Counted from the stretch's first letter, positions 1 to 64,000 are shown. The stretch: DNA of 64,000 nt from Kiritimatiellia bacterium (GCA_035327665.1 DAOLCW010000006.1:165-64164); one strand, 5' to 3'. The notes: generated from the letters alone by a model not told the origin. Numbers and translations are program-made.

Positions 1-737
1 TCCGCATCACCGGCGGCAGTGTCGCAAACAACATCAAGGACGGACTCAAGCTCGATGGGAAGAAACACGTCAAGACGGGTCATGTCACCCTGCTGAAGCG
101 CACCGTGTTTGTAAACAACGGCGGCAACGGCGTGCATATTTCATCGTCGGAAGACGACGCGGAATGCCGGGTGGTGATTGAGCACTCGCACCTCAACGGC
201 AACGCCGAAAGTGGACTTCACCTCGAAACCACCCATCCCGGCTCTGTCGCCGCGCTTTCCTGGCTCAATAGCCACGCCAGCCACAACGATCTCAGCGGCA
301 TCGTCGTCACCGGTTCGGTGGGCACCGGCAAGGGGTCCGTCACCATTCGCGGCGGCGACTGCGACGACAGCAATGCGCACGGCATCGTCATCGCCCATCC
401 GGAAATCAATGCCGGCCTCATCACCGGCATGTCGGTCGCCCGCAACGGCGGGTCGGGCATCGTCTCGGCGGGCCAGTCCATCTCCATCGTCGGCAACCTC
501 GTCGCCGGCAACACCGCCGCCGGCATCCGGGTCGAGGGTGACAACCATTTCCTCGACGACAACCGGTGCGTCAACAATGCCGTCGGCATCGAACTCGCCG
601 GCAACAACAACGCCTTGGCTAAGAATGTGTACGGAGGACCGCAAATTCCGTTCATCGACTTCACCGGCACCAATCCCTCCGCCCCGATCCAGGACGTATC
701 CGTGGGCGTGAACCCGCTGGGAAACATCATTTATTGA
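1..737 (+). CDS. right-handed parallel beta-helix repeat protein (5' end outside window)
   Basis: Frame 3 is open from nt 3 with no upstream stop, to the stop at 735-737. Tandem Gly/Asn/Ile-rich ~22-aa turns (HLNGNAESGLHLETT, GIVVTGSVGTG, HGIVIAHPEINAG, GIVSAGQSISIVGN, AAGIRVEGDN, NAVGIELAGNNN) are typical of PbH1/NosD-like beta-helices. Confidence 0.7.
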   Translation, partial: RITGGSVANNIKDGLKLDGKKHVKTGHVTLLKRTVFVNNGGNGVHISSSEDDAECRVVIEHSHLNGNAESGLHLETTHPGSVAALSWLNSHASHNDLSGIVVTGSVGTGKGSVTIRGGDCDDSNAHGIVIAHPEINAGLITGMSVARNGGSGIVSAGQSISIVGNLVAGNTAAGIRVEGDNHFLDDNRCVNNAVGIELAGNNNALAKNVYGGPQIPFIDFTGTNPSAPIQDVSVGVNPLGNIIY

Positions 738-761
738 GGCACACCAAAGAGATCACCGACC

Positions 762-1631
762 ATGTACAAAACATTGCATTACGCGCTCATCACGACCTTC
801 GTCGCTTTATCCGCCCACGCCACCTCCATCAACCCGGTCAACCGGCACGGCTACGGTGCCAACATCGGCTGGCTGAACTTCCAGGGTGACCTCGCCAACG
901 GTGCGGTCATCGGCCTCTACTACTCCACTGGCTACGTGTGGAGCGCCAACGCGGGCTGGATCAGCCTCGGATCCGGCACTCCCGCCAACGGATACAGTTA
1001 CGCCAACAACACCGCCTCCGACTGGGGCGTAAACCTCGTCATGCCCGGCGGCTACCTCCGCGGCATGGCCTATGGCGCGAACATCGGCTGGATCAACTTC
1101 GAAACCAACGGCAATGCCCGGGTGGATCTCGTCACCGGGAACCTCGACGGCTACGCCTACGGCGCGAATGTCGGATGGATCAGCCTCAGCAACAGTCAGG
1201 CCTTCGTCCAGACCGACTACCTCGGCTGGGGTCCCGACTCCGACGGCGACGGCATTCCCGACGCCTACGAATTCAAAACCACCGGTGATCTCACTACCCT
1301 CGGCCCCTATCCCAATGATGCCGACGTCGACGGATCTCCCGACCTCGACGAATTCCTCGCCGACACCGACCCCCTCGACGGCGGGAGCGTCTTGGAAATC
1401 ACCGCGTTGAGCCGGTCCAATCCCACCAACCACGTCACGTGGACCGTCCAACCCACTCGTTTTTACCGCCTTGAACAAGCCACCTCGGCGACCAATCAAG
1501 CCGTCTGGACCGACACCGGCCTCGGCATCCTGCCCCCCGGCGCTGGCCCCACCCTTACCGGCCTCGTCCCCGACCCCACCGCCACCACCCGCTTCTACCG
1601 CGCCACCGCTATCGTACCCCTCGCGCCATGA
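762..1631 (+). CDS. secreted repeat protein with four G(Y/A)GANIGW(L/I)(N/S)(F/L) repeats and an Asp-rich Ca-binding-like segment
   Basis: True ATG at 762. N-terminal signal-like hydrophobic stretch (LITTFVALSAHA). Four copies of an ~40-aa repeat with the core GANIGWxNF. A DSDGDGIPDAYE...DADVDGSPDLDEF segment resembles thrombospondin-type-3/EF-like Asp motifs. The C-terminal tail has two RFYR motifs. Confidence 0.7.
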   Translation: MYKTLHYALITTFVALSAHATSINPVNRHGYGANIGWLNFQGDLANGAVIGLYYSTGYVWSANAGWISLGSGTPANGYSYANNTASDWGVNLVMPGGYLRGMAYGANIGWINFETNGNARVDLVTGNLDGYAYGANVGWISLSNSQAFVQTDYLGWGPDSDGDGIPDAYEFKTTGDLTTLGPYPNDADVDGSPDLDEFLADTDPLDGGSVLEITALSRSNPTNHVTWTVQPTRFYRLEQATSATNQAVWTDTGLGILPPGAGPTLTGLVPDPTATTRFYRATAIVPLAP

Positions 1632-1816
1632 TCATAGATGAACGCCTCACAGATGCTCCCATCCAAGATGGGAACTGCGCAAAGCCGAAATCCACACCGC
1701 GCACCAGTAAAAAGCGTAGCGCCGAAATCCGTTCGGCGCCTCATCAGCGCACGCCCTTCGGAGAGACACCTACAGCCAGGGATGTCCGGTCACCCAAAAG
1801 AGAGAGAGAAACCAAC

Positions 1817-2899
1817 ATGAAAAAGACACCGATATCGATCATCATCTCGCTGACATCGGTGCTCACCTCCCTCGCCCAAGGCCCACTCACCCCGCCCGGC
1901 GCCCCCGCGCCGACGATGAAGACGTTGGACCAGATCGAGCCGCGCACGCCGATTTCCAGTCTACCTTATGTGATTGGCCAGTCAGGATCGTATTTTGTGG
2001 CTGGCAGTTTAACCGGTGCGCCGAGCCAAAGCGGCATCACCATAACCAATGACAATGTTACCGTGGATCTCATGGGGTTTGAGTTGGTAGGTAACTCGGG
2101 GTTGGGCTCCGGAATCACCGTATCCGGCACAAGGTCCAATATTGTCATCAAAAATGGCACCCTTCGCGGGTGGACGAACGACGGAATCAATATGGGAAGC
2201 ACATCGACCGATTGTCGCTTTGAGAACATGAATCTGGTTGGAAACGGCGGGACCGGATTAAGGCCAGGCCACCGAAGCATCGTGAGGAACTGTACGGCGA
2301 TCCATAACGGTTCGTCTGGTTTTTTTGCCGAAGCAAACCAAACCGTGATGTTTATTGACTGCATGGCAGCGGATAATGGGTCCACGGGCATTGGCACCGG
2401 GATCGAAAGTACCATTTCCCGTTGCTTCGCTTTGCGCAATATTGGATTCGGAATCCACGCGAATGGAGGGAGATCAACGGTCCGGGAAAGCACCGCCCAC
2501 CGAAACACTGGTATCGGCATTCACGTCGGCCCAGGCGGGGAAGTCTACCGCTGCACAGTGACCAGCAATACCTCCCATGGGATCAGAGTGGTCAGCGAAT
2601 CACGTGTCGAAAGCAATCACGTCGCCTACAACGTTGATAACGGAATTTTTGCTATGGGTTTTGGCAACCTCCTCAAAAACAACACCCTCGTCCATAATCA
2701 CATCGGCCTGGTAACCGCTTCCCAAAACTTGATCACGGGCAACATGGCAAGAAACAGTCTTTCCGGGACAAACTACAATATCGCCGCGAACTGTAAAGTC
2801 GGGGTTATTGTCGCGGCCCCCAACAGCCCCGCCATTGCAGGTAACAGCGGAGGCGCCGGCCTCGGCACCACCGACCCCTGGGCTAATTTTTCGTATTAA
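1817..2899 (+). CDS. secreted right-handed beta-helix repeat protein, paralog family member 1
   Basis: The ORF-track frame 1628..2899 has an internal ATG at 1817 (MKKTPISIIISLTSVLTSLAQG signal peptide) preceded by a purine-rich stretch. A conserved module AQGPLTPPGAPAPTMKTLDQIEPRTPISSLPYVI is followed by beta-helix repeats (NGGTGL, GIHANGG, NTGIGIHVGPGG, SHGIRVV). Confidence 0.75.
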   Translation: MKKTPISIIISLTSVLTSLAQGPLTPPGAPAPTMKTLDQIEPRTPISSLPYVIGQSGSYFVAGSLTGAPSQSGITITNDNVTVDLMGFELVGNSGLGSGITVSGTRSNIVIKNGTLRGWTNDGINMGSTSTDCRFENMNLVGNGGTGLRPGHRSIVRNCTAIHNGSSGFFAEANQTVMFIDCMAADNGSTGIGTGIESTISRCFALRNIGFGIHANGGRSTVRESTAHRNTGIGIHVGPGGEVYRCTVTSNTSHGIRVVSESRVESNHVAYNVDNGIFAMGFGNLLKNNTLVHNHIGLVTASQNLITGNMARNSLSGTNYNIAANCKVGVIVAAPNSPAIAGNSGGAGLGTTDPWANFSY

Positions 2900-2912
2900 A
2901 CCGGCAGACAAT

Positions 2913-4259
2913 ATGATCCATCTACGCAATCTGATCATAACGTTCAGCTTCTTGCTGATCCCTATCGGAACCGCCTACGCAAATACCTTTACTGTCGTCA
3001 ATTCCGGCAACAACGATTACCTCATCAACGACGTCGCCGATCCCGCCCTCACCCTCTATCGCGGGCGTACCTACATTTTCACCATCAATGCCTCCGGGCA
3101 TCCGTTCTGGATCAAGACGAATGCCGTGACCGGGACAGGAAGCGCCTACACCAACGGCGTAACAGGGAACGGCACCGCCGTCGGTACCCTCACCTTTGTC
3201 GTGCCCACCAACGCGCCAAACACCCTGCATTATATCTGCCAGTCCCACTCCGCGATGACCGGCACGTTCAACATCTCAAACTCGCCCCAGCGCGCCTGGT
3301 GGCGATTTGAGGACATCGGCCCCCACGTTTTAGACTACTCCGGTCGATCCATGAACGGCGTAATCACCAATATGAATCCTGGAGTGGATGACGGAATCTC
3401 CGGCTATTCGACCGATGTTCCGGGCGCCCTCATCGTGGACGGCAATCTAACCAACGCAAATGTATACAGTTTGCGTTTCAGCAATACCGGAGGTGTGGTT
3501 CGCATCCTGAACCCCTCGCTTCTCGCTCTGACCAACCATCCCGCCTCGGTCACCATCGAGGCCTTTGTAAAGCTTAACCGCGAAAAACATCCCATGCGCA
3601 TTCTCGATGCGCGCCTCACCAATGCGCCACCACCCACCTTCCGCACCACCCTGACCCCGTTCTTTGCTTTTACCGGCACCGGGCAGCGCCCGAGAATTTC
3701 CCTCATTGCCCAATCGGATTTCACCACCAATGTCGGAGTGACCGTTTCGGGTAGCGTGCTCATCAACCCTTCTCCGATCGCCCTCCGCCATTGGCATCAC
3801 GTCGCCTTCGTTCTGGATAACTCCACCATCTCGTTTTATGTGGACTATCAATTGATGGATTCATATTCAATGTTGGCCTTTGGGTATGTTCCGGGACCGT
3901 ATGGATTGATCAACCAAGTGTCCTTGGGCGGTATTCCTACAGATCCTTTCGCTAACTTCGAAGGACTGATCGACGAAATACGCATCAGCGACCGCGCTCT
4001 CGCTCCCACCCAGTTTCTTCGTGTGGTCAACGGGCTTGCCCCCGGTATTCGCGCCTTTCCATCTCCCGAAGCCCCAGCCTCCGTGACCGTGGTTACCGAA
4101 CAGGGGATACGTTATCAAGTCCAAGGTACATCCCACCTCCTCCCTCCATCCCCCATCTGGACGAACATCGGAACCGTTATCACCGGAAGTTTGTTCTACA
4201 CCACCATTTCCACCCCCGGCGCTCCGGCTCTAATTTACCGTGCCATCAGAAATCCATAA
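2913..4259 (+). CDS. secreted cupredoxin-like + LamG (laminin G/concanavalin-like) domain protein
   Basis: Internal ATG at 2913 (MIHLRNLIITFSFLLIPIGTAYA signal peptide). The N-terminal ~100 aa carry the type-1 copper-site-like pattern H(PFWIKT)...YICQSHSAMTG (C-x2-H-x2-M as in amicyanin/pseudoazurin). The central part has LamG hallmarks (ALRHWHHVAFVLDNSTISFYVDYQLMD...GLIDEIRISDRALAP). The C-terminus ends ...PALIYRAIRNP. Confidence 0.7.
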   Translation: MIHLRNLIITFSFLLIPIGTAYANTFTVVNSGNNDYLINDVADPALTLYRGRTYIFTINASGHPFWIKTNAVTGTGSAYTNGVTGNGTAVGTLTFVVPTNAPNTLHYICQSHSAMTGTFNISNSPQRAWWRFEDIGPHVLDYSGRSMNGVITNMNPGVDDGISGYSTDVPGALIVDGNLTNANVYSLRFSNTGGVVRILNPSLLALTNHPASVTIEAFVKLNREKHPMRILDARLTNAPPPTFRTTLTPFFAFTGTGQRPRISLIAQSDFTTNVGVTVSGSVLINPSPIALRHWHHVAFVLDNSTISFYVDYQLMDSYSMLAFGYVPGPYGLINQVSLGGIPTDPFANFEGLIDEIRISDRALAPTQFLRVVNGLAPGIRAFPSPEAPASVTVVTEQGIRYQVQGTSHLLPPSPIWTNIGTVITGSLFYTTISTPGAPALIYRAIRNP

Positions 4260-4277
4260 ACCCGCCAAGACCAAGAA

Positions 4278-5885
4278 ATGAAAACATTACCAATCATGAT
4301 AGGATGCCTCCTCGCGTTTGGCCATTCCACCATCGCCCAAGGCCCGCTGGATCCGCCCGGCGCCCCCGAGCCTAACTACCGCACCCTAGACCAAGTCCGG
4401 CCCGGCCAACCCCTGCCCAGCCTTGACCCCGCCGATGCCAACCTCTTCACCCTCCCTATCACCATCATCGAGCCCGGCAGTTATTACCTTACCCGCGATC
4501 TCATCGCGCCATCGGCGTACCCCGGCCCGGCCATCGTCATCCAAACCGACGGCGTCACCCTCGACCTCAACGGGTTCGCCATTGAAAAGCGGGGCTCCCC
4601 GAGCGGCTCACCTGCCATCGCCGAAACCGATGCCGGAAACCGCTACGTGGTCATTCGCAATGGACGCATCCTCGGTCCATGGATCGGCGGTATTGACATG
4701 CCAAAGTCTTCCCGGCTGGTCTTGGAACATCTCACCATTCAAGGCCCCTTGAACTACGGGATTCGGATCAACGAAGCGAACCGCATCCATAACTGCCGCG
4801 TTCTCTCCGCCCCCGACGAGCCGGTGGCTTTCCTCGGCCTTGAAGCCGGACAAGCGCTTTTGGTCACCGACAGCGAATGGCGCGGATCAAGGGTTCTCGG
4901 GCAACGCATCATGCTTTGGCGCGACAACCTCTTCGATGGCGCAGGCGTGACCTATAACGCCCGGCCATTTTGGTATTCGTTGGATTTCACCAACAACTAT
5001 CTCGGGCGCAGTATCGTTCACAAGTCCGACTTCCGGAATATCACCCCGCCTGCCGCGACCCACGTCATCGATCCCCCAAGCAAAACCTTGTTCAACGAAG
5101 TCACCATGGAAAACATCACCGGCGTGGGGATGTTCACCTTCGGAGACGTGAACATCCATCATTCCACCTTCAAAGACATCACCGGTAGCGCCATTCATTC
5201 CTGGGGCATCATCCAGGTATTCGACAGCGAGTTCTCCGACATCAACGAAACCGCCATTCAGCCCGCCATCGAGAGCGTCATCCTCGACAACTCCTTCCGC
5301 CGCATCGGGACGGCTGTCGGGGGAACCCTCGCCAACCGCCTTCTTGTCATGCGCAACCACATCTTCGATGCCATCTACGGGCTCCAACTGCTCTCCAGCA
5401 GCTTCGTATTCGACAACCGGATCTCCGACACCGTGGAAAACGGCATCGAAATGGGCGGGGCAAATTACCTTTACCGCAACCAGATTCTCCGGTCCCGGAC
5501 CGGCATTCGCACCACGGGTGGCGCCAACCGGATCGATGCCAATCACATCTCGACCTTCCAAACCTTCGGGGTCGAACTCGGCGGTGACAACAATACCGTC
5601 ATGGAAAACAGGATTGAAGATAACGTCGGACCCGGACTCCCTGAAGCGGCCATCTACTCCGAATACGGGCGCAACCTCATCCTCGACAACACCCTTAGCG
5701 CCGTGCTGGGTGTTGGCGTCCAGCTTCGCGATGGCACCAACAACGTCATCGTCGGCAATTCCGCCTGGTATGGCGCCCCCCCCTACAACTTTGATACCGG
5801 CGAAAACTATTACGGGACCCTCCTCACCGATCAGGGCCCCTACAACGCATCCCGCTGGGTCAACATTGGAAAGGGCGTGCCATGA
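4278..5885 (+). CDS. secreted right-handed beta-helix repeat protein, paralog family member 2
   Basis: ATG at 4278. The signal peptide MKTLPIMIGCLLAFGHSTIA is followed by QGPLDPPGAPEPNYRTLDQVRPGQPLPSLDP, which is homologous to the N-termini of 1817..2899 and 5882..7549. A long beta-helix-like repeat region follows. The stop overlaps the next gene's start (ATGA). Confidence 0.75.
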   Translation: MKTLPIMIGCLLAFGHSTIAQGPLDPPGAPEPNYRTLDQVRPGQPLPSLDPADANLFTLPITIIEPGSYYLTRDLIAPSAYPGPAIVIQTDGVTLDLNGFAIEKRGSPSGSPAIAETDAGNRYVVIRNGRILGPWIGGIDMPKSSRLVLEHLTIQGPLNYGIRINEANRIHNCRVLSAPDEPVAFLGLEAGQALLVTDSEWRGSRVLGQRIMLWRDNLFDGAGVTYNARPFWYSLDFTNNYLGRSIVHKSDFRNITPPAATHVIDPPSKTLFNEVTMENITGVGMFTFGDVNIHHSTFKDITGSAIHSWGIIQVFDSEFSDINETAIQPAIESVILDNSFRRIGTAVGGTLANRLLVMRNHIFDAIYGLQLLSSSFVFDNRISDTVENGIEMGGANYLYRNQILRSRTGIRTTGGANRIDANHISTFQTFGVELGGDNNTVMENRIEDNVGPGLPEAAIYSEYGRNLILDNTLSAVLGVGVQLRDGTNNVIVGNSAWYGAPPYNFDTGENYYGTLLTDQGPYNASRWVNIGKGVP

Positions 5886-7549
5886 TCCGTAACCTCCGCA
5901 TCCTCCCTTCTTTCGCCTTCGCAACCGTGGTCGGCGTTCAGGTTCTTTTCGCCCAGGGGCCGCTGGTCCCCGGCGCGGCGCCCGCTCCCACCATGAAAAC
6001 CCTTCAACAGGTCCAACCCGCCCAACCCATCCCGTCTCCGGATCCCTTCCTCAACCTGCAAAGTCCCCCTTATATCCTCGATAAACCCGGGCGATACATC
6101 CTTACCCAAAACCTTCACCATCCCACCAACACCCTCCTTCCCGTCATCATCATTAACCAGCCCGGGGTTGAACTCGATCTCGGTGGCTTCTCCATCTACA
6201 ATGCCGACTCCAGCCTAACCCTTGCCCCCACCGCCGCCGTGCGGGCCATCGAGGTCAATGTCGACGGCTTCACCCGACCCCCGCCCGTCACCATCCGCAA
6301 CGGCATGATCTGGGGCGCCATCGCCCCCGCCATCACCGTTCAAGGCGTGGACCTCATTCTCGAAGACATGATCATCGATACCGTCGGCGCGGTCACCACC
6401 GACCGCGACCTCATCACCCGGCGCGCCACCTTGTTTGGCAACTGGTCCCACGCCGCCGAAACCGTTGGCTGGACCGCCAAGGACACCATCATCCGCGGCG
6501 GCGCGACGAGCACCTATCAAGCGTGGACCGATGTCGTTTGCTACCCCGCCGTCCATTTCGGAATCAACGCCTTCTACGCCAATCAGTTCACCGGCATCCA
6601 TGTGACCGACAAGGCCGAGTGGGAAAGGGTCATTTACGCCGGCATGAATGGCAATGATCGCTTCGGATCGGGAAGTTTTGATCTCCACGTCGGCCCCGGC
6701 TCCCGAATTCGCCAGTCCGTGCTCGATCACCACGACATCGATTTCGCAATCGATAGTCCCAAAGTGCGCAGCCTGTGGTTTGACGACTCACTCACCCTTG
6801 AGCGTTCCTACCTCAACAACTTCCGTATCGCCTCCGTGACCAACAGCGTGCACCCCCAATCGCGCATCGTGATCGACCGGTCTAACGCCAAAAACCTGAT
6901 CGTCGACATCGGCCCCTCGAACCTACTCGAGTCCGCCCGGTCGCGCATCCACGTCGCCTACCTCCGCAGCGCGTTGTGGGATGTCGAGGAATCCATCATC
7001 CGAATCGGGTGGAGCGTTCCCGACATCCACTACCAGCGCATCAACCGCAGCCTCGCCCATCACGAAGGAAACAATGTATCCCCCCATGCCCATCGCCTCA
7101 TCGGTTCGGCCAGCCGATCCCAGTTTTCCGCCGACAACGAACAAGCGCCCTTTGGCTCCTTCCTCTACACCCTCGCGCTCGGTTCAGGAGCCACCGTTCA
7201 GGATTCCTTTGTTTCCGGCTACAACGCGATCTCCGTTACCAACAACATCCTCTTTGCCACCATCGCCCGCAACAATGTCTTCGGCGGCAACAGCGGGATC
7301 AACCTCTCTTTTGAATCCCCGCCGCCTCAGATGACCGTCATTCGCGACAACGCGGTCTGGGTCACCGGCTCCGGGGACGGCACCCCTTGGACCATCACCA
7401 ACAACGGCACCAACACCGTCATGCGCGGTAACATCGCCTTCGGCGCCCCCATCAACACCAATGTACTCGGCGGAGGCTTTTACGGAACCATCCATGAGGG
7501 CCCCGGCGAAGTCACCGTGGGAGGCATGGGAAACATCCGAACCCGCTGA
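5882..7549 (+). CDS. secreted right-handed beta-helix repeat protein, paralog family member 3
   Basis: ATG at 5882 overlaps the upstream stop by 4 nt. Signal-like N-terminus (ILPSFAFATVVGVQVLFAQG) then PLVPGAAPAPTMKTLQQVQPAQPIPSPDP, the same module as the two paralogs. Confidence 0.75.
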   Translation: MIRNLRILPSFAFATVVGVQVLFAQGPLVPGAAPAPTMKTLQQVQPAQPIPSPDPFLNLQSPPYILDKPGRYILTQNLHHPTNTLLPVIIINQPGVELDLGGFSIYNADSSLTLAPTAAVRAIEVNVDGFTRPPPVTIRNGMIWGAIAPAITVQGVDLILEDMIIDTVGAVTTDRDLITRRATLFGNWSHAAETVGWTAKDTIIRGGATSTYQAWTDVVCYPAVHFGINAFYANQFTGIHVTDKAEWERVIYAGMNGNDRFGSGSFDLHVGPGSRIRQSVLDHHDIDFAIDSPKVRSLWFDDSLTLERSYLNNFRIASVTNSVHPQSRIVIDRSNAKNLIVDIGPSNLLESARSRIHVAYLRSALWDVEESIIRIGWSVPDIHYQRINRSLAHHEGNNVSPHAHRLIGSASRSQFSADNEQAPFGSFLYTLALGSGATVQDSFVSGYNAISVTNNILFATIARNNVFGGNSGINLSFESPPPQMTVIRDNAVWVTGSGDGTPWTITNNGTNTVMRGNIAFGAPINTNVLGGGFYGTIHEGPGEVTVGGMGNIRTR

Positions 7550-61982: not shown

Positions 61983-62058
61983 TGGCACCCCCAACGGGAT
62001 TCGAACCCGTGTTACTAGGATGAGAACCTAGCGTCCTAGGCCTCTAGACGATGGGGGC
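61983..62058 (-). tRNA. tRNA-Glu (anticodon CUC)
   Basis: The reverse complement GCCCCCATCGTCTAGAGGCCTAGGACGCTAGGTTCTCATCCTAGTAACACGGGTTCGAATCCCGTTGGGGGTGCCA folds as a cloverleaf. Its 5' half is near-identical to E. coli tRNA-Glu, the anticodon loop is TTCTCAT, the T-loop is TTCGAAT, and CCA is encoded. Confidence 0.85.
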
Positions 62059-62078
62059 CTTGTTTGAAAGCCGGGAAA

Positions 62079-62153
62079 TGGCTCCGACGGTAGGGCTCGA
62101 ACCTACAACCTAGTGGTTAACAGCCACCCGCTCTACCATTGAGCTACGTCGGA
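62079..62153 (-). tRNA. tRNA-Asn (anticodon GUU)
   Basis: The reverse complement TCCGACGTAGCTCAATGGTAGAGCGGGTGGCTGTTAACCACTAGGTTGTAGGTTCGAGCCCTACCGTCGGAGCCA has a 7-bp acceptor stem, anticodon loop CTGTTAA, T-loop TTCGAGC and an encoded CCA. U1 is as in E. coli tRNA-Asn. Confidence 0.85.
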
Positions 62154-62228
62154 AGCAGAAAACGGTGGCAAACTATGAATATCCGAAGCTTGAAAGTCAA
62201 GGGGTTTTGCACAACGGTGGGGCCCGTC

Positions 62229-62756
62229 ATGAAACATTCCCACTCCCGTCGTTACGATCATCCCATCCGCTGGCCCCACCCGCCCCTCAACGTGGTCCTC
62301 GTCGAACCGGAAATCCCCCCCAACACCGGAAACATCGCCCGCATGTGCGCCGCCACCGGCTCCCGACTCCACCTCGTCGAACCCCTCGGGTTTTCCATCG
62401 ACGACGCCAAACTCCGCCGCGCCGGCCTCGACTACTGGGACGCCATCGCCCCCATCCTCCATCCCAACCTCGATGCCTTCTTCGCCCGTGAAAATCCCCC
62501 CCGCTTCTTCCTCTACAGCACCGGAGGCTCCCTCCTCTACACCGACATCACCTACCAACCCGGCGACTACCTTCTCTTCGGCTCCGAAACCCGTGGTCTC
62601 CCCGACGACCTCCTCGCCCGCCACCCCCACCTCGTCGCCGGCATTCCCCTCTTGACCCAGCATGTCCGGTCCTTAAACCTCTCCACCGCCGCCGGCATCG
62701 TCGTCTACGAAGCCATTCGTCAACTTCAACTAGGTTTGAACACAGAAAACGGCTAG
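62229..62756 (+). CDS. trmL: tRNA (cytidine/uridine-2'-O)-methyltransferase TrmL (SpoU/TrmH family)
   Basis: LNVVLVEPEIPPNTGNIARMCAATGSRLHLVEPLGFSIDDAKLRRAGLDYWD…GDYLLFGSETRGLP…SLNLSTAAGIVVYEAIRQL aligns throughout with E. coli TrmL. The start is set at the internal ATG 62229; ATG 62175 is possible. The track start at 62139 would overlap tRNA-Asn. Confidence 0.85.
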   Translation: MKHSHSRRYDHPIRWPHPPLNVVLVEPEIPPNTGNIARMCAATGSRLHLVEPLGFSIDDAKLRRAGLDYWDAIAPILHPNLDAFFARENPPRFFLYSTGGSLLYTDITYQPGDYLLFGSETRGLPDDLLARHPHLVAGIPLLTQHVRSLNLSTAAGIVVYEAIRQLQLGLNTENG

Positions 62757-62790
62757 CCGTCTAAACCCACCAATTGAAAGGAGCCATTGT

Positions 62791-63780
<990 letters not shown>

Positions 63781-63823
63781 CCCCCAACCTGGAGGGGCGC
63801 CCTCCCCCGCCCCCGAGACGGCC

Positions 63824-64000
63824 ATGATCCCAGCGGAAATCCTCAAAAAGATTCAGCAGATCCAGATCCGCACCCGCGGCGTCGTCACCGACGCCTTCGC
63901 CGGGCAATACCACAGCGTCTTCAAGGGCCAGGGCATGGAGTTCGAGGAAGTCCGCGAATACGTCCCCGGCGACGACATTCGCACCATCGACTGGAACGTC
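63824..64000 (+). CDS. DUF58-family protein (MoxR partner), 3' end outside window
   Basis: ATG at 63824. MIPAEILKKIQQIQIRTRGVVTDAFAGQYHSVFKGQGMEFEEVREYVPGDDIRTIDWNV is the conserved DUF58 N-terminus usually found downstream of moxR. Confidence 0.75.
   Translation, partial: MIPAEILKKIQQIQIRTRGVVTDAFAGQYHSVFKGQGMEFEEVREYVPGDDIRTIDWNV

Follow-up and report, generated by a model that had tools for sequence, protein, structure and literature searches.

The proteins A, B and C, encoded at 1817-7549 of a 64,000-nucleotide stretch of a Kiritimatiellia bacterium genome (GCA_035327665.1, DAOLCW010000006.1:165-64164; hereafter the window), carry the same N-terminal sequence on divergent bodies. Our analyses showed that this shared N-terminus consists of two joined elements. 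Part 1, a proline-rich tag of 13 residues, is confined to the N-terminus and is not part of the fold. Part 2, as judged with the help of a structure model, is a structural N-cap, made up of the cap helix and the first strands of the beta-helix domain. Part 1 is far more conserved than the bodies that follow it, also precedes bodies of another fold, and shows genetic coupling to a single conserved secreted protein, which we call G (762-1631). Our preferred, still tentative, reading is that part 1 acts as a short linear docking or sorting peptide that is read in trans by G.

The window lies on an ENA metagenome contig of 128,781 bp. Its first genes encode a section of an array of Sec-exported right-handed beta-helix proteins, and the genes of the array in the window all lie on the + strand. 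In A (1817-2899, 360 amino acids (aa)) the signal peptide comprises residues 1-20 (MKKTPISIIISLTSVLTSLA, 1817-1876; read from the sequence and from column statistics), part 1 residues 21-33 (QGPLTPPGAPAPT, 1877-1915) and part 2 residues 34-53 (MKTLDQIEPRTPISSLPYVI, 1916-1975). Part 1 is found at 4338-4376 (QGPLDPPGAPEPN) in B (4278-5885, 535 aa) and at 5954-5992 (QGPLVPGAAPAPT) in the beta-helix-like protein C (5882-7549, 555 aa). When the three proteins were aligned, the signal peptide was followed by AQGPL.P(P/G)(G/A)AP.P(T/N)(M/Y)(K/R)TL.Q(I/V).P..P(I/L).S and, past this motif, by a common helix start, P.xI..PGxYxLT..L...I.I...V.LDL.GF; beyond this shared start the bodies are 24-32% identical. 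The module of B is diverged and has an insert ahead of the helix start. Open reading frames (ORFs) and alignment thus bear out the original prediction of tandem beta-helix paralogs with a common N-terminus, and the ATGA overlap noted for B and C is present at 5882-5885. A six-frame regular-expression scan of the window found the motif in these three genes only. The prediction had further noted a beta-helix gene running off the 5' edge, and this gene, too, turned out to be tagged, which raises the number of carriers at this site from three to four. Its 3' part occupies 1-737, with the start and the tag upstream of the window (locus L001, 6786-8921). It encodes a 711-aa protein (M-type) matching Pfam Beta_helix/NosD, with the N-terminus MKSAARCIASVLTLPLITLAQGPLTPTGAPAPSMRTLHQIEPGTPVDAVPFTMDQPGRYFLTGNL and the module AQGPLTPTGAPAPSMRTLHQIEPGTPVDAVPFTMDQPGRYFLTGNL. 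Upstream of this gene, within the 10 kb of L001, four untagged beta-helix paralogs of 396, 445, 425 and 468 aa stand in tandem (48-5242); the gene cluster holds at least eight paralogs, four of them tagged.

A module of about 45 aa had been proposed originally. The N-terminal similarity is real, but it resolves into part 1, with the consensus QG(S/P)LTPPGAPAPT (A|QG(S/P)LTPPGAPAPT when the putative cleavage point is included), and part 2, with the consensus TMKTLDQIEPRTPISS.P.TI..GSYYLT. Helical or coiled-coil inserts separate ...PPGAPAPTMKTLD(Q/E)(I/L) from (D/E)xR(T/I)PIS in some relatives (e.g., L016 2827, L025, L028 7735 and L050). In proteins with two or three units (P0018 and P0051), an internal unit is preceded by a helix and (D/E)xR(T/I)PIS..P.TI..GSYYLT, and none of the internal units is preceded by QGSLTPPGAPAP. 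An AlphaFold2 model of A, with regular strand triplets and a predicted local distance difference test score (pLDDT) of 87, gives residues 21-30 a mean of about 62 and exceeds 90 from residue 41; in it, a helix (37-40) and a strand (43-46) sit at the solenoid end. Part 1 is also portable, as together with the helix it heads proteins in which a long coiled coil and then propeller-like repeats take the place of the beta-helix (e.g., L009 8507-9754, L037 1485, L056 9910-11310, L079 10875-12104). From inserts, internal units, model and portability it therefore follows that part 2 belongs with the fold as its N-cap and that part 1 is a separate N-terminal element. The four untagged sister paralogs provide a natural tag-minus control inside the same cluster. 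They keep the helix start (R.PI...P.xIT..G.Y; for example GGRIPIAAHQLPYVITNSGSYVV and 'R.PI...PYVITNSGSY') and have neither the QGxLTPPGAPAP tag nor the MKTLDQ helix. Because they start their helix without it, part 1 is dispensable for the fold. P0018, P0051 and P0152 chain two or three beta-helix units with Gln-rich helical linkers between them, and every unit begins anew with (D/E)xR(T/I)PIS..P.TI..GSYYLT. The Arg in EPR|TPI was considered as a protease site and rejected, being retained in untagged paralogs and located inside the confidently modelled cap.

The similarity might have been confined to a low-complexity Pro/Ala context around the signal peptidase site and lost in orthologs. It is not: orthologs and paralogs conserve it across whole phyla, and it is far beyond chance. 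Searching 1.84 billion protein cluster representatives (HMMER) with a profile of 42 module positions returned the further carriers that the original prediction had led one to expect: 5,449 representatives passed E<=1e-3 and 2,417 passed E<=1e-10, with the match falling almost always on residues ~20-70. Among the best 150 of the 5,449 the match mostly covers residues ~15-75, directly behind the signal peptide, and later positions belong to proteins with extended or mis-called starts. One exact back-translated pattern gave 199 confirmed sites in contigs representing one genome per species. Carriers were Verrucomicrobiota (Verrucomicrobiia, Chthoniobacterales, Limisphaerales, Akkermansiaceae, Luteolibacter), Kiritimatiellia/Pontiella, Lentisphaeraceae and a few oddly labelled bins; the window proteins belong to a very large beta-helix family specific to the Planctomycetes-Verrucomicrobia-Chlamydiae (PVC) bacteria, i.e., Verrucomicrobiota and relatives. 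The 76 loci retained hold 144 tagged ORFs, with up to seven per 12 kb. No Pfam, NCBIfam or PHROGs model covers the module; a word-indexed protein search with a short 50-aa module query returned just 17 short fragments, which served as seeds, and motif strings and keywords on the tag brought up nothing relevant in the literature searched.

Comparisons between loci gave 73% identity for the 23 residues around the tag as opposed to 26% for the bodies, and the part 1 positions outside the search pattern are conserved at 93% (Q), 97% (G), 97% (L), 82% (T), 98% (P), 88% (P) and 91% (G). The four local copies differ at synonymous sites when their DNA is compared. This indicates selection on the peptide and not on the DNA, and it rules out both gene conversion and a signal at the nucleic-acid level. 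Such constancy also speaks to an explanation that requires no partner at all, in which part 1 is an optimised signal-peptidase context joined to a rigid proline spacer, and G is a neighbour by operon descent. Two thirds of the module are demonstrably N-cap, A-Q-G is conserved at the predicted cleavage site, and right-handed beta-helices commonly have N-terminal cap helices, all of which would suit this explanation. Nevertheless, conservation is 82-98% at nine positions within 13 unfolded residues, ahead of bodies with 26% identity, and a generic spacer would not be expected to stay this constant over three phylum-level lineages. Moreover, the sister paralogs of the same cluster are exported and start their helix without part 1, which in turn also stands ahead of non-beta-helix bodies. 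We consider a pure processing or spacer role unlikely, if the strongest of the competing explanations.

The columns at the cleavage site show A at -14 in 67% and Q at -13 in 93% of the sequences. With Pro following Gly in 26%, a cut after AQG is disfavoured, and in line with the -3/-1 rule we infer cleavage at xxA|QG, in A after A20. The predicted mature N-terminal peptide would then be QGPLTPPGAPAPTMKTLDQIEPR. Such cleavage would leave a Gln as the first mature residue, which could cyclise. Part 1 might accordingly be viewed as a modification site, by Ser/Thr O-glycosylation or pyroglutamate formation, that protects or marks the mature N-terminus. A predicted N-terminal Gln in 93% of the sequences would agree with this, as would the Thr and Ser residues with Pro and Ala beside them, the kind of setting in which some bacterial O-glycosylation systems act. 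However, no glycosyltransferase or cyclase recurs in the loci, such sites seldom need 13 fixed residues, and the pairing with G would be left unexplained; we thus regard a modification site as improbable.

The original prediction had envisaged a cognate receptor or secretion system encoded upstream, and G is a candidate for such a partner. Its gene (762-1631, 289 aa) lies just upstream of the stretch from A to C and follows the 711-aa gene after a gap of 24 nucleotides (nt), forming the canonical M->G pair as the operon partner of the tagged proteins. In 35 of 77 tag-centred loci, a G homolog adjoins a tagged gene on the same strand, and five of seven G homologs picked regardless of their neighbours directly adjoin a tagged gene. 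At L079 the tagged neighbour of G has a non-beta-helix body. We also scanned metagenome contigs centred on G, which yielded 73 loci, 28 of them reaching 1.2 kb or more to either side of G. In 20 of these 28, a tagged gene stands next to G on the same strand. In four more it appeared one gene away, with a DUF4412 gene in between in three cases, and in the fourth the tagged gene is really adjacent, its start having been mis-set by the script. Over all loci, the gene immediately upstream of G ends in the C-terminal signature of the beta-helix family in 58 of 89 cases, mostly with gaps of 0-60 nt. Part 1 is hence genetically coupled to G. The coupling is asymmetric, since G nearly always occurs with a tagged gene and only about half of the tagged arrays have a nearby G, and this fits one shared partner for many ligands. 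The sole apparent natural M-G fusion (L043, 559 aa) was dismissed as an artefact of a masked run of N.

In G, the signal peptide is followed by an all-beta N-domain, by two calcium loops of the TSP3 type, each with a helix after it, and by a C-terminal Fn3-like sandwich. An AlphaFold2 model (pLDDT 91) assigns the N-domain to residues 23-151, the calcium-loop-plus-helix region to 160-205 and a six-stranded sandwich to 213-284. The N-domain has four invariant NxGW hairpin motifs (YGANIGW(I/L)NF), and the sandwich ends in FYRAxAxVPLAP. The 4,183 matches of the G family are 53-80% identical over the full length and are all annotated as 'hypothetical', with TSP3_bac in a few of them as the sole Pfam match. 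Neither a PDB relative by sequence nor a significant Foldseek match in PDB or BFVD was found for G. Candidate relatives were rejected. For the Amuc_1099 family (NF042425), the best score was 23 bits with a cut-off of 50, on model positions ~107-188 over the TSP3 calcium-loop region; in papers, Amuc_1099 appears just as a hypothetical gene of a pilus-like cluster. The NCBIfam matches to MtsD and CglD cover the calcium loops only and fall far under the cut-offs.

An unfolded peptide that is near-constant over three phylum-level lineages, dispensable for the fold, portable and coupled to G fits a short linear motif read in trans. In the mechanism that we favour tentatively, signal peptidase would cut at xxA|QG and part 1 would become the extreme mature N-terminus. 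There it would be recognised in trans, most likely by the secreted, co-operonic G. Known polyproline-binding domains work through clusters of exposed Trp and Tyr, and the invariant Trp and Tyr of the G hairpin repeats could likewise cradle a polyproline-II segment of part 1. With one handle shared by all of them, a large and exchangeable set of heads would be docked or sorted by G, and the putative outcome would be their display at the surface. These heads are mostly beta-helices like those of polysaccharide lyases, epimerases and tailspikes, along with a few coiled-coil and propeller proteins.

Several points weigh against such a role of G. Adjacent genes point to functional coupling and not to contact. 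In about half of the tag-centred loci G is absent from the surrounding 6 kb, and it would have to serve many unlinked paralogs in trans. Conversely, no tagged neighbour was seen for two of the seven G homologs and for four of the 28 G-centred loci. Part 1 abuts the signal peptidase site, and its conservation could partly reflect processing. Finally, G might read the C-terminal tail, PWANFx[YF]-COOH, instead of part 1. This last possibility is countered by two observations: the C-terminal motif tracks the beta-helix family including its untagged paralogs, and G also pairs with the non-beta-helix protein of L079.

The tail itself is a second conserved element. In A it spans residues 333-360 (2813-2896), ends in DPWANFSY and reads ...GGAGLGTTDPWANFSY; these last 28 residues are flexible in the AlphaFold2 model, with pLDDT below 50. 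A tail of the form ...(T/S)(D/N/S)PWANFx(Y/F), at a fixed distance from the C-terminus, was found in 76 of 121 full-length relatives, and in 68 of these 76 exactly two residues follow N-F. Another 20 of the 121 end in ...YKYNMP and five in K.LGTP. The untagged L001 paralogs have the tail, too (...FNPWINFDL, ...QQPWANINTAP). The fixed position relative to the free carboxy end suggests that the terminus itself is recognised.

Conserved flexible motifs at both ends of a family of beta-solenoids would also suit a different role, in which part 1 serves as a signal for secretion or sorting, either across the outer membrane or onto it, its reader is encoded elsewhere, and G is another substrate or an accessory. 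Its place at the extreme mature N-terminus is reminiscent of CsgA N22 and of the TPS (two-partner secretion) domain, and a DUF4412 protein recurs in the cassettes. CsgA N22 of curli (type VIII secretion) and part 1 are both short unfolded peptides (about 13-22 residues) that directly follow the signal peptide of a beta-solenoid protein and keep their sequence whatever body they head; CsgA N22 is read in trans by proteins from its own gene cluster, and we propose the like for part 1. However, the two share no sequence similarity, CsgG, CsgE and CsgF homologs are absent from the loci, and CsgA consists of amyloid repeats as opposed to the large PbH1-type beta-helices found here. Like part 1, the TPS domain of TpsA is a conserved N-terminal region right behind the signal peptide of right-handed beta-helix proteins. 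In contrast to part 1, it is itself a folded beta-helix with NPNL/NPNGI motifs, is about 250 aa long and depends on a TpsB barrel encoded next to it. No TPS (Haemagg_act) domain was detected by Pfam in A, B, C or 113 relatives. In about 160 loci, no secretin, usher, TpsB-type barrel or other outer-membrane channel recurs; the only strongly recurrent neighbour is G, which according to its model is not a barrel, and the proteins match no Pfam or NCBIfam secretion-domain model. We judge a dedicated secretion signal with a distant reader to be unlikely as well.

The bodies fall within the parallel beta-helix superfamily as ordinary members. Pfam Beta_helix (PF13229) scores 62.3 bits for A and 59.6 bits for B (cut-off 25.9) and matches 84 of 113 tagged relatives; C has no Pfam match and aligns with A and B. 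The PF13229 score and the solenoid fold of its model place A among the right-handed parallel beta-helices, in agreement with its NCBI entry, 'right-handed parallel beta-helix repeat-containing protein [Kiritimatiellia bacterium]'. Foldseek matched A to the A-module of the AlgE4 epimerase (E 1.6e-7, template modelling (TM) score 0.6) and further to tailspikes, GH87 glucanases, the fucoidan lyase FdlA and K1 capsule lyase in the PDB, at 12-16% identity. As modelled, A is a regular helix with few loops and has a generic carbohydrate-active beta-helix fold, and the likeness lies in the general fold only. The coils of the family follow the consensus C-x-A-x-x-N-x-x-x-G-I. A NosD identity was rejected, as the PF05048 matches of B and the 711-aa protein span generic PbH1 repeats only and no nos genes occur in L001 or related loci.

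Large paralogous families of beta-helix surface proteins in tandem arrays are also known within the PVC superphylum from the chlamydial Pmp proteins. Unlike these, which as autotransporters end in a barrel and have GGA(I/L/V)/FxxN repeats, the window proteins have no barrel and are built from C-x-A-x-x-N-x-x-x-G-I coils with N- and C-terminal motifs of their own. No Autotransporter domain was found by Pfam in A, B, C or the 113 relatives, which end in a short flexible tail.

A conserved N-terminus on divergent beta-helix heads recalls phage tailspikes, and the original prediction had likened the module to their particle-binding domains. In that case the genes would be prophage or tailocin tailspikes with the module as particle adaptor. 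The bodies resemble tailspikes in general fold, as they resemble many other beta-helices, the neighbouring LamG protein has a domain matching a phage baseplate-connector PHROG, and some related loci hold fibre-like genes with Peptidase_S74. Yet neither the module nor G was found among 2.9 million viral contigs, and no PHROG matches any of A, B, C, G or the 711-aa protein. The flanking genes are housekeeping genes, the proteins carry Sec signal peptides, and capsid, tail or terminase genes are absent. The comparison of the N-termini leads to the same result, since tailspike N-domains are folded, trimeric, phage-encoded and about 100 aa long with no secretion signal, in contrast to a chromosomally encoded tag of 13 residues with pLDDT about 62 behind a Sec signal peptide. 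A tailspike origin is thus effectively refuted. S-layer docking, the other likeness that had been drawn, fares no better: searched against Pfam and NCBIfam at E<=0.1, A, B, C and G matched neither SLH nor another described S-layer or cell-wall docking domain. The idea of an anchoring or adaptor module survives in part: a conserved, portable N-terminus on divergent bodies is adaptor-like, but about two thirds of the module are structural N-cap. In kind, the tag resembles N-terminal targeting and docking peptides, and the membership tests for the known families of that kind came out negative.

Among the other neighbours of the arrays, a DUF4412 protein of about 290-400 aa was seen in 12 tag-centred and several G-centred loci (e.g., L019 2420-3337, L031 3838-4716, L126 5035-5895, L134 4681-5901, L164 475-1335). 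It starts with AFEGRI.A..T.GG....LYT.G...LR.E, has a proline-rich middle and ends in QPP.GW.EIQPLP(F/L). Its gene sometimes lies between the tagged gene and G, and it may be a third component; no copy was found within 10 kb of the window. Signal-transduction pairs of varying type, such as a WD40 histidine kinase with a response regulator or an extracytoplasmic function (ECF) sigma factor with a Ser/Thr kinase of ~1,075 aa, lie upstream of many arrays (L017 1836-5743, L028 1852-5813, L044 3576-4196, L048 3-1985), which suggests that the arrays are regulated. Repeat proteins of the type 'F(T/I)YQG(S/R)L..... G.Y..(R/Q)F.LY' occur near the arrays in seven loci (e.g., L031 10919-12142). Two of the repeat proteins (L031 1695-3815 and L084 3596-5695) end in a tail-fibre-like Peptidase_S74 intramolecular-chaperone domain, and at L084 this gene, not a tagged gene, stands upstream of G.

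In the window, a secreted, untagged protein of 448 aa is encoded between A and B (2913-4259, +). It combines a cupredoxin-like N-domain with Laminin_G_3; residues 25-123 (HPFWIKT...HYICQSHSAMTG) show a pattern like a type-1 copper site, and the N-domain matches phrog_677, 'baseplate wedge tail fiber protein connector' (E 4.7e-24). A syntenic ortholog at L009 7166-8503 likewise lies between tagged genes. On the - strand, 34182-60263 forms a single ORF of 8,693 aa without the tag, with GLUG, Laminin_G_3, Peptidase_M26_N, BACON, many CARDB, PKD, fn3 and Big domains; by its domain content it looks like a giant adhesin-type surface protein. Measured on the + strand, GC skew has very strongly negative values (-0.12 to -0.39) at 1-32000 and 62000-64000, equally for + strand genes (1-7.5 kb) and - strand genes (8-15 kb), and is about 0 over 32-52 kb, within the giant ORF. 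Either an effect of the replication strand or a trait of the lineage may lie behind this pattern.

No Pfam or NCBIfam model covers the tag, its pairing with G or the G N-domain, and the literature searched is silent on all three. In its boldest and more doubtful form, our interpretation is that part 1 and G make up an unrecognised, PVC-specific ligand-receptor pair, with a 13-residue polyproline handle on one side and an aromatic hairpin-repeat domain on a calcium-binding scaffold on the other. By way of such a pair, dozens of exchangeable heads per genome, glycan-binding or glycan-cleaving, would be attached to the cell surface. If true, this would be a cohesin-dockerin-like system made from entirely different parts. 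As in cellulosomes, many carbohydrate-active heads would share one handle and a separate conserved protein encoded nearby, and G has two calcium-binding loops each with a helix. A dockerin, though, is a folded calcium-binding module of about 70 aa and not an N-terminal proline-rich peptide of 13 residues, and here the calcium loops reside in the proposed receptor instead of the ligand; no Pfam match to Dockerin_1 or Cohesin was found in the tagged proteins, their relatives or G. Together with the C-terminal PWANFx[YF]-COOH, the tag could even define a new two-ended sorting pathway for the Verrucomicrobiota outer membrane.

In soils and oceans as well as in guts, Verrucomicrobiota and Kiritimatiellia rank among the major degraders of complex and sulfated polysaccharides. 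To our knowledge, very little is known about how these bacteria sort and display their secreted proteins. The tag is present on at least 5,400 protein clusters and the partner family comprises at least 4,000, and neither has a Pfam or NCBIfam model of its own. Should the tag merely be a processing context, its dissection from the N-cap would still sharpen the domain boundaries of a very large family that carries no annotation beyond 'parallel beta-helix repeat protein'. If, however, the tag is a handle for G, it would provide an annotation rule for spotting substrates, a short peptide-receptor pair reusable for surface display, and a concrete entry point into the surface architecture of PVC bacteria.

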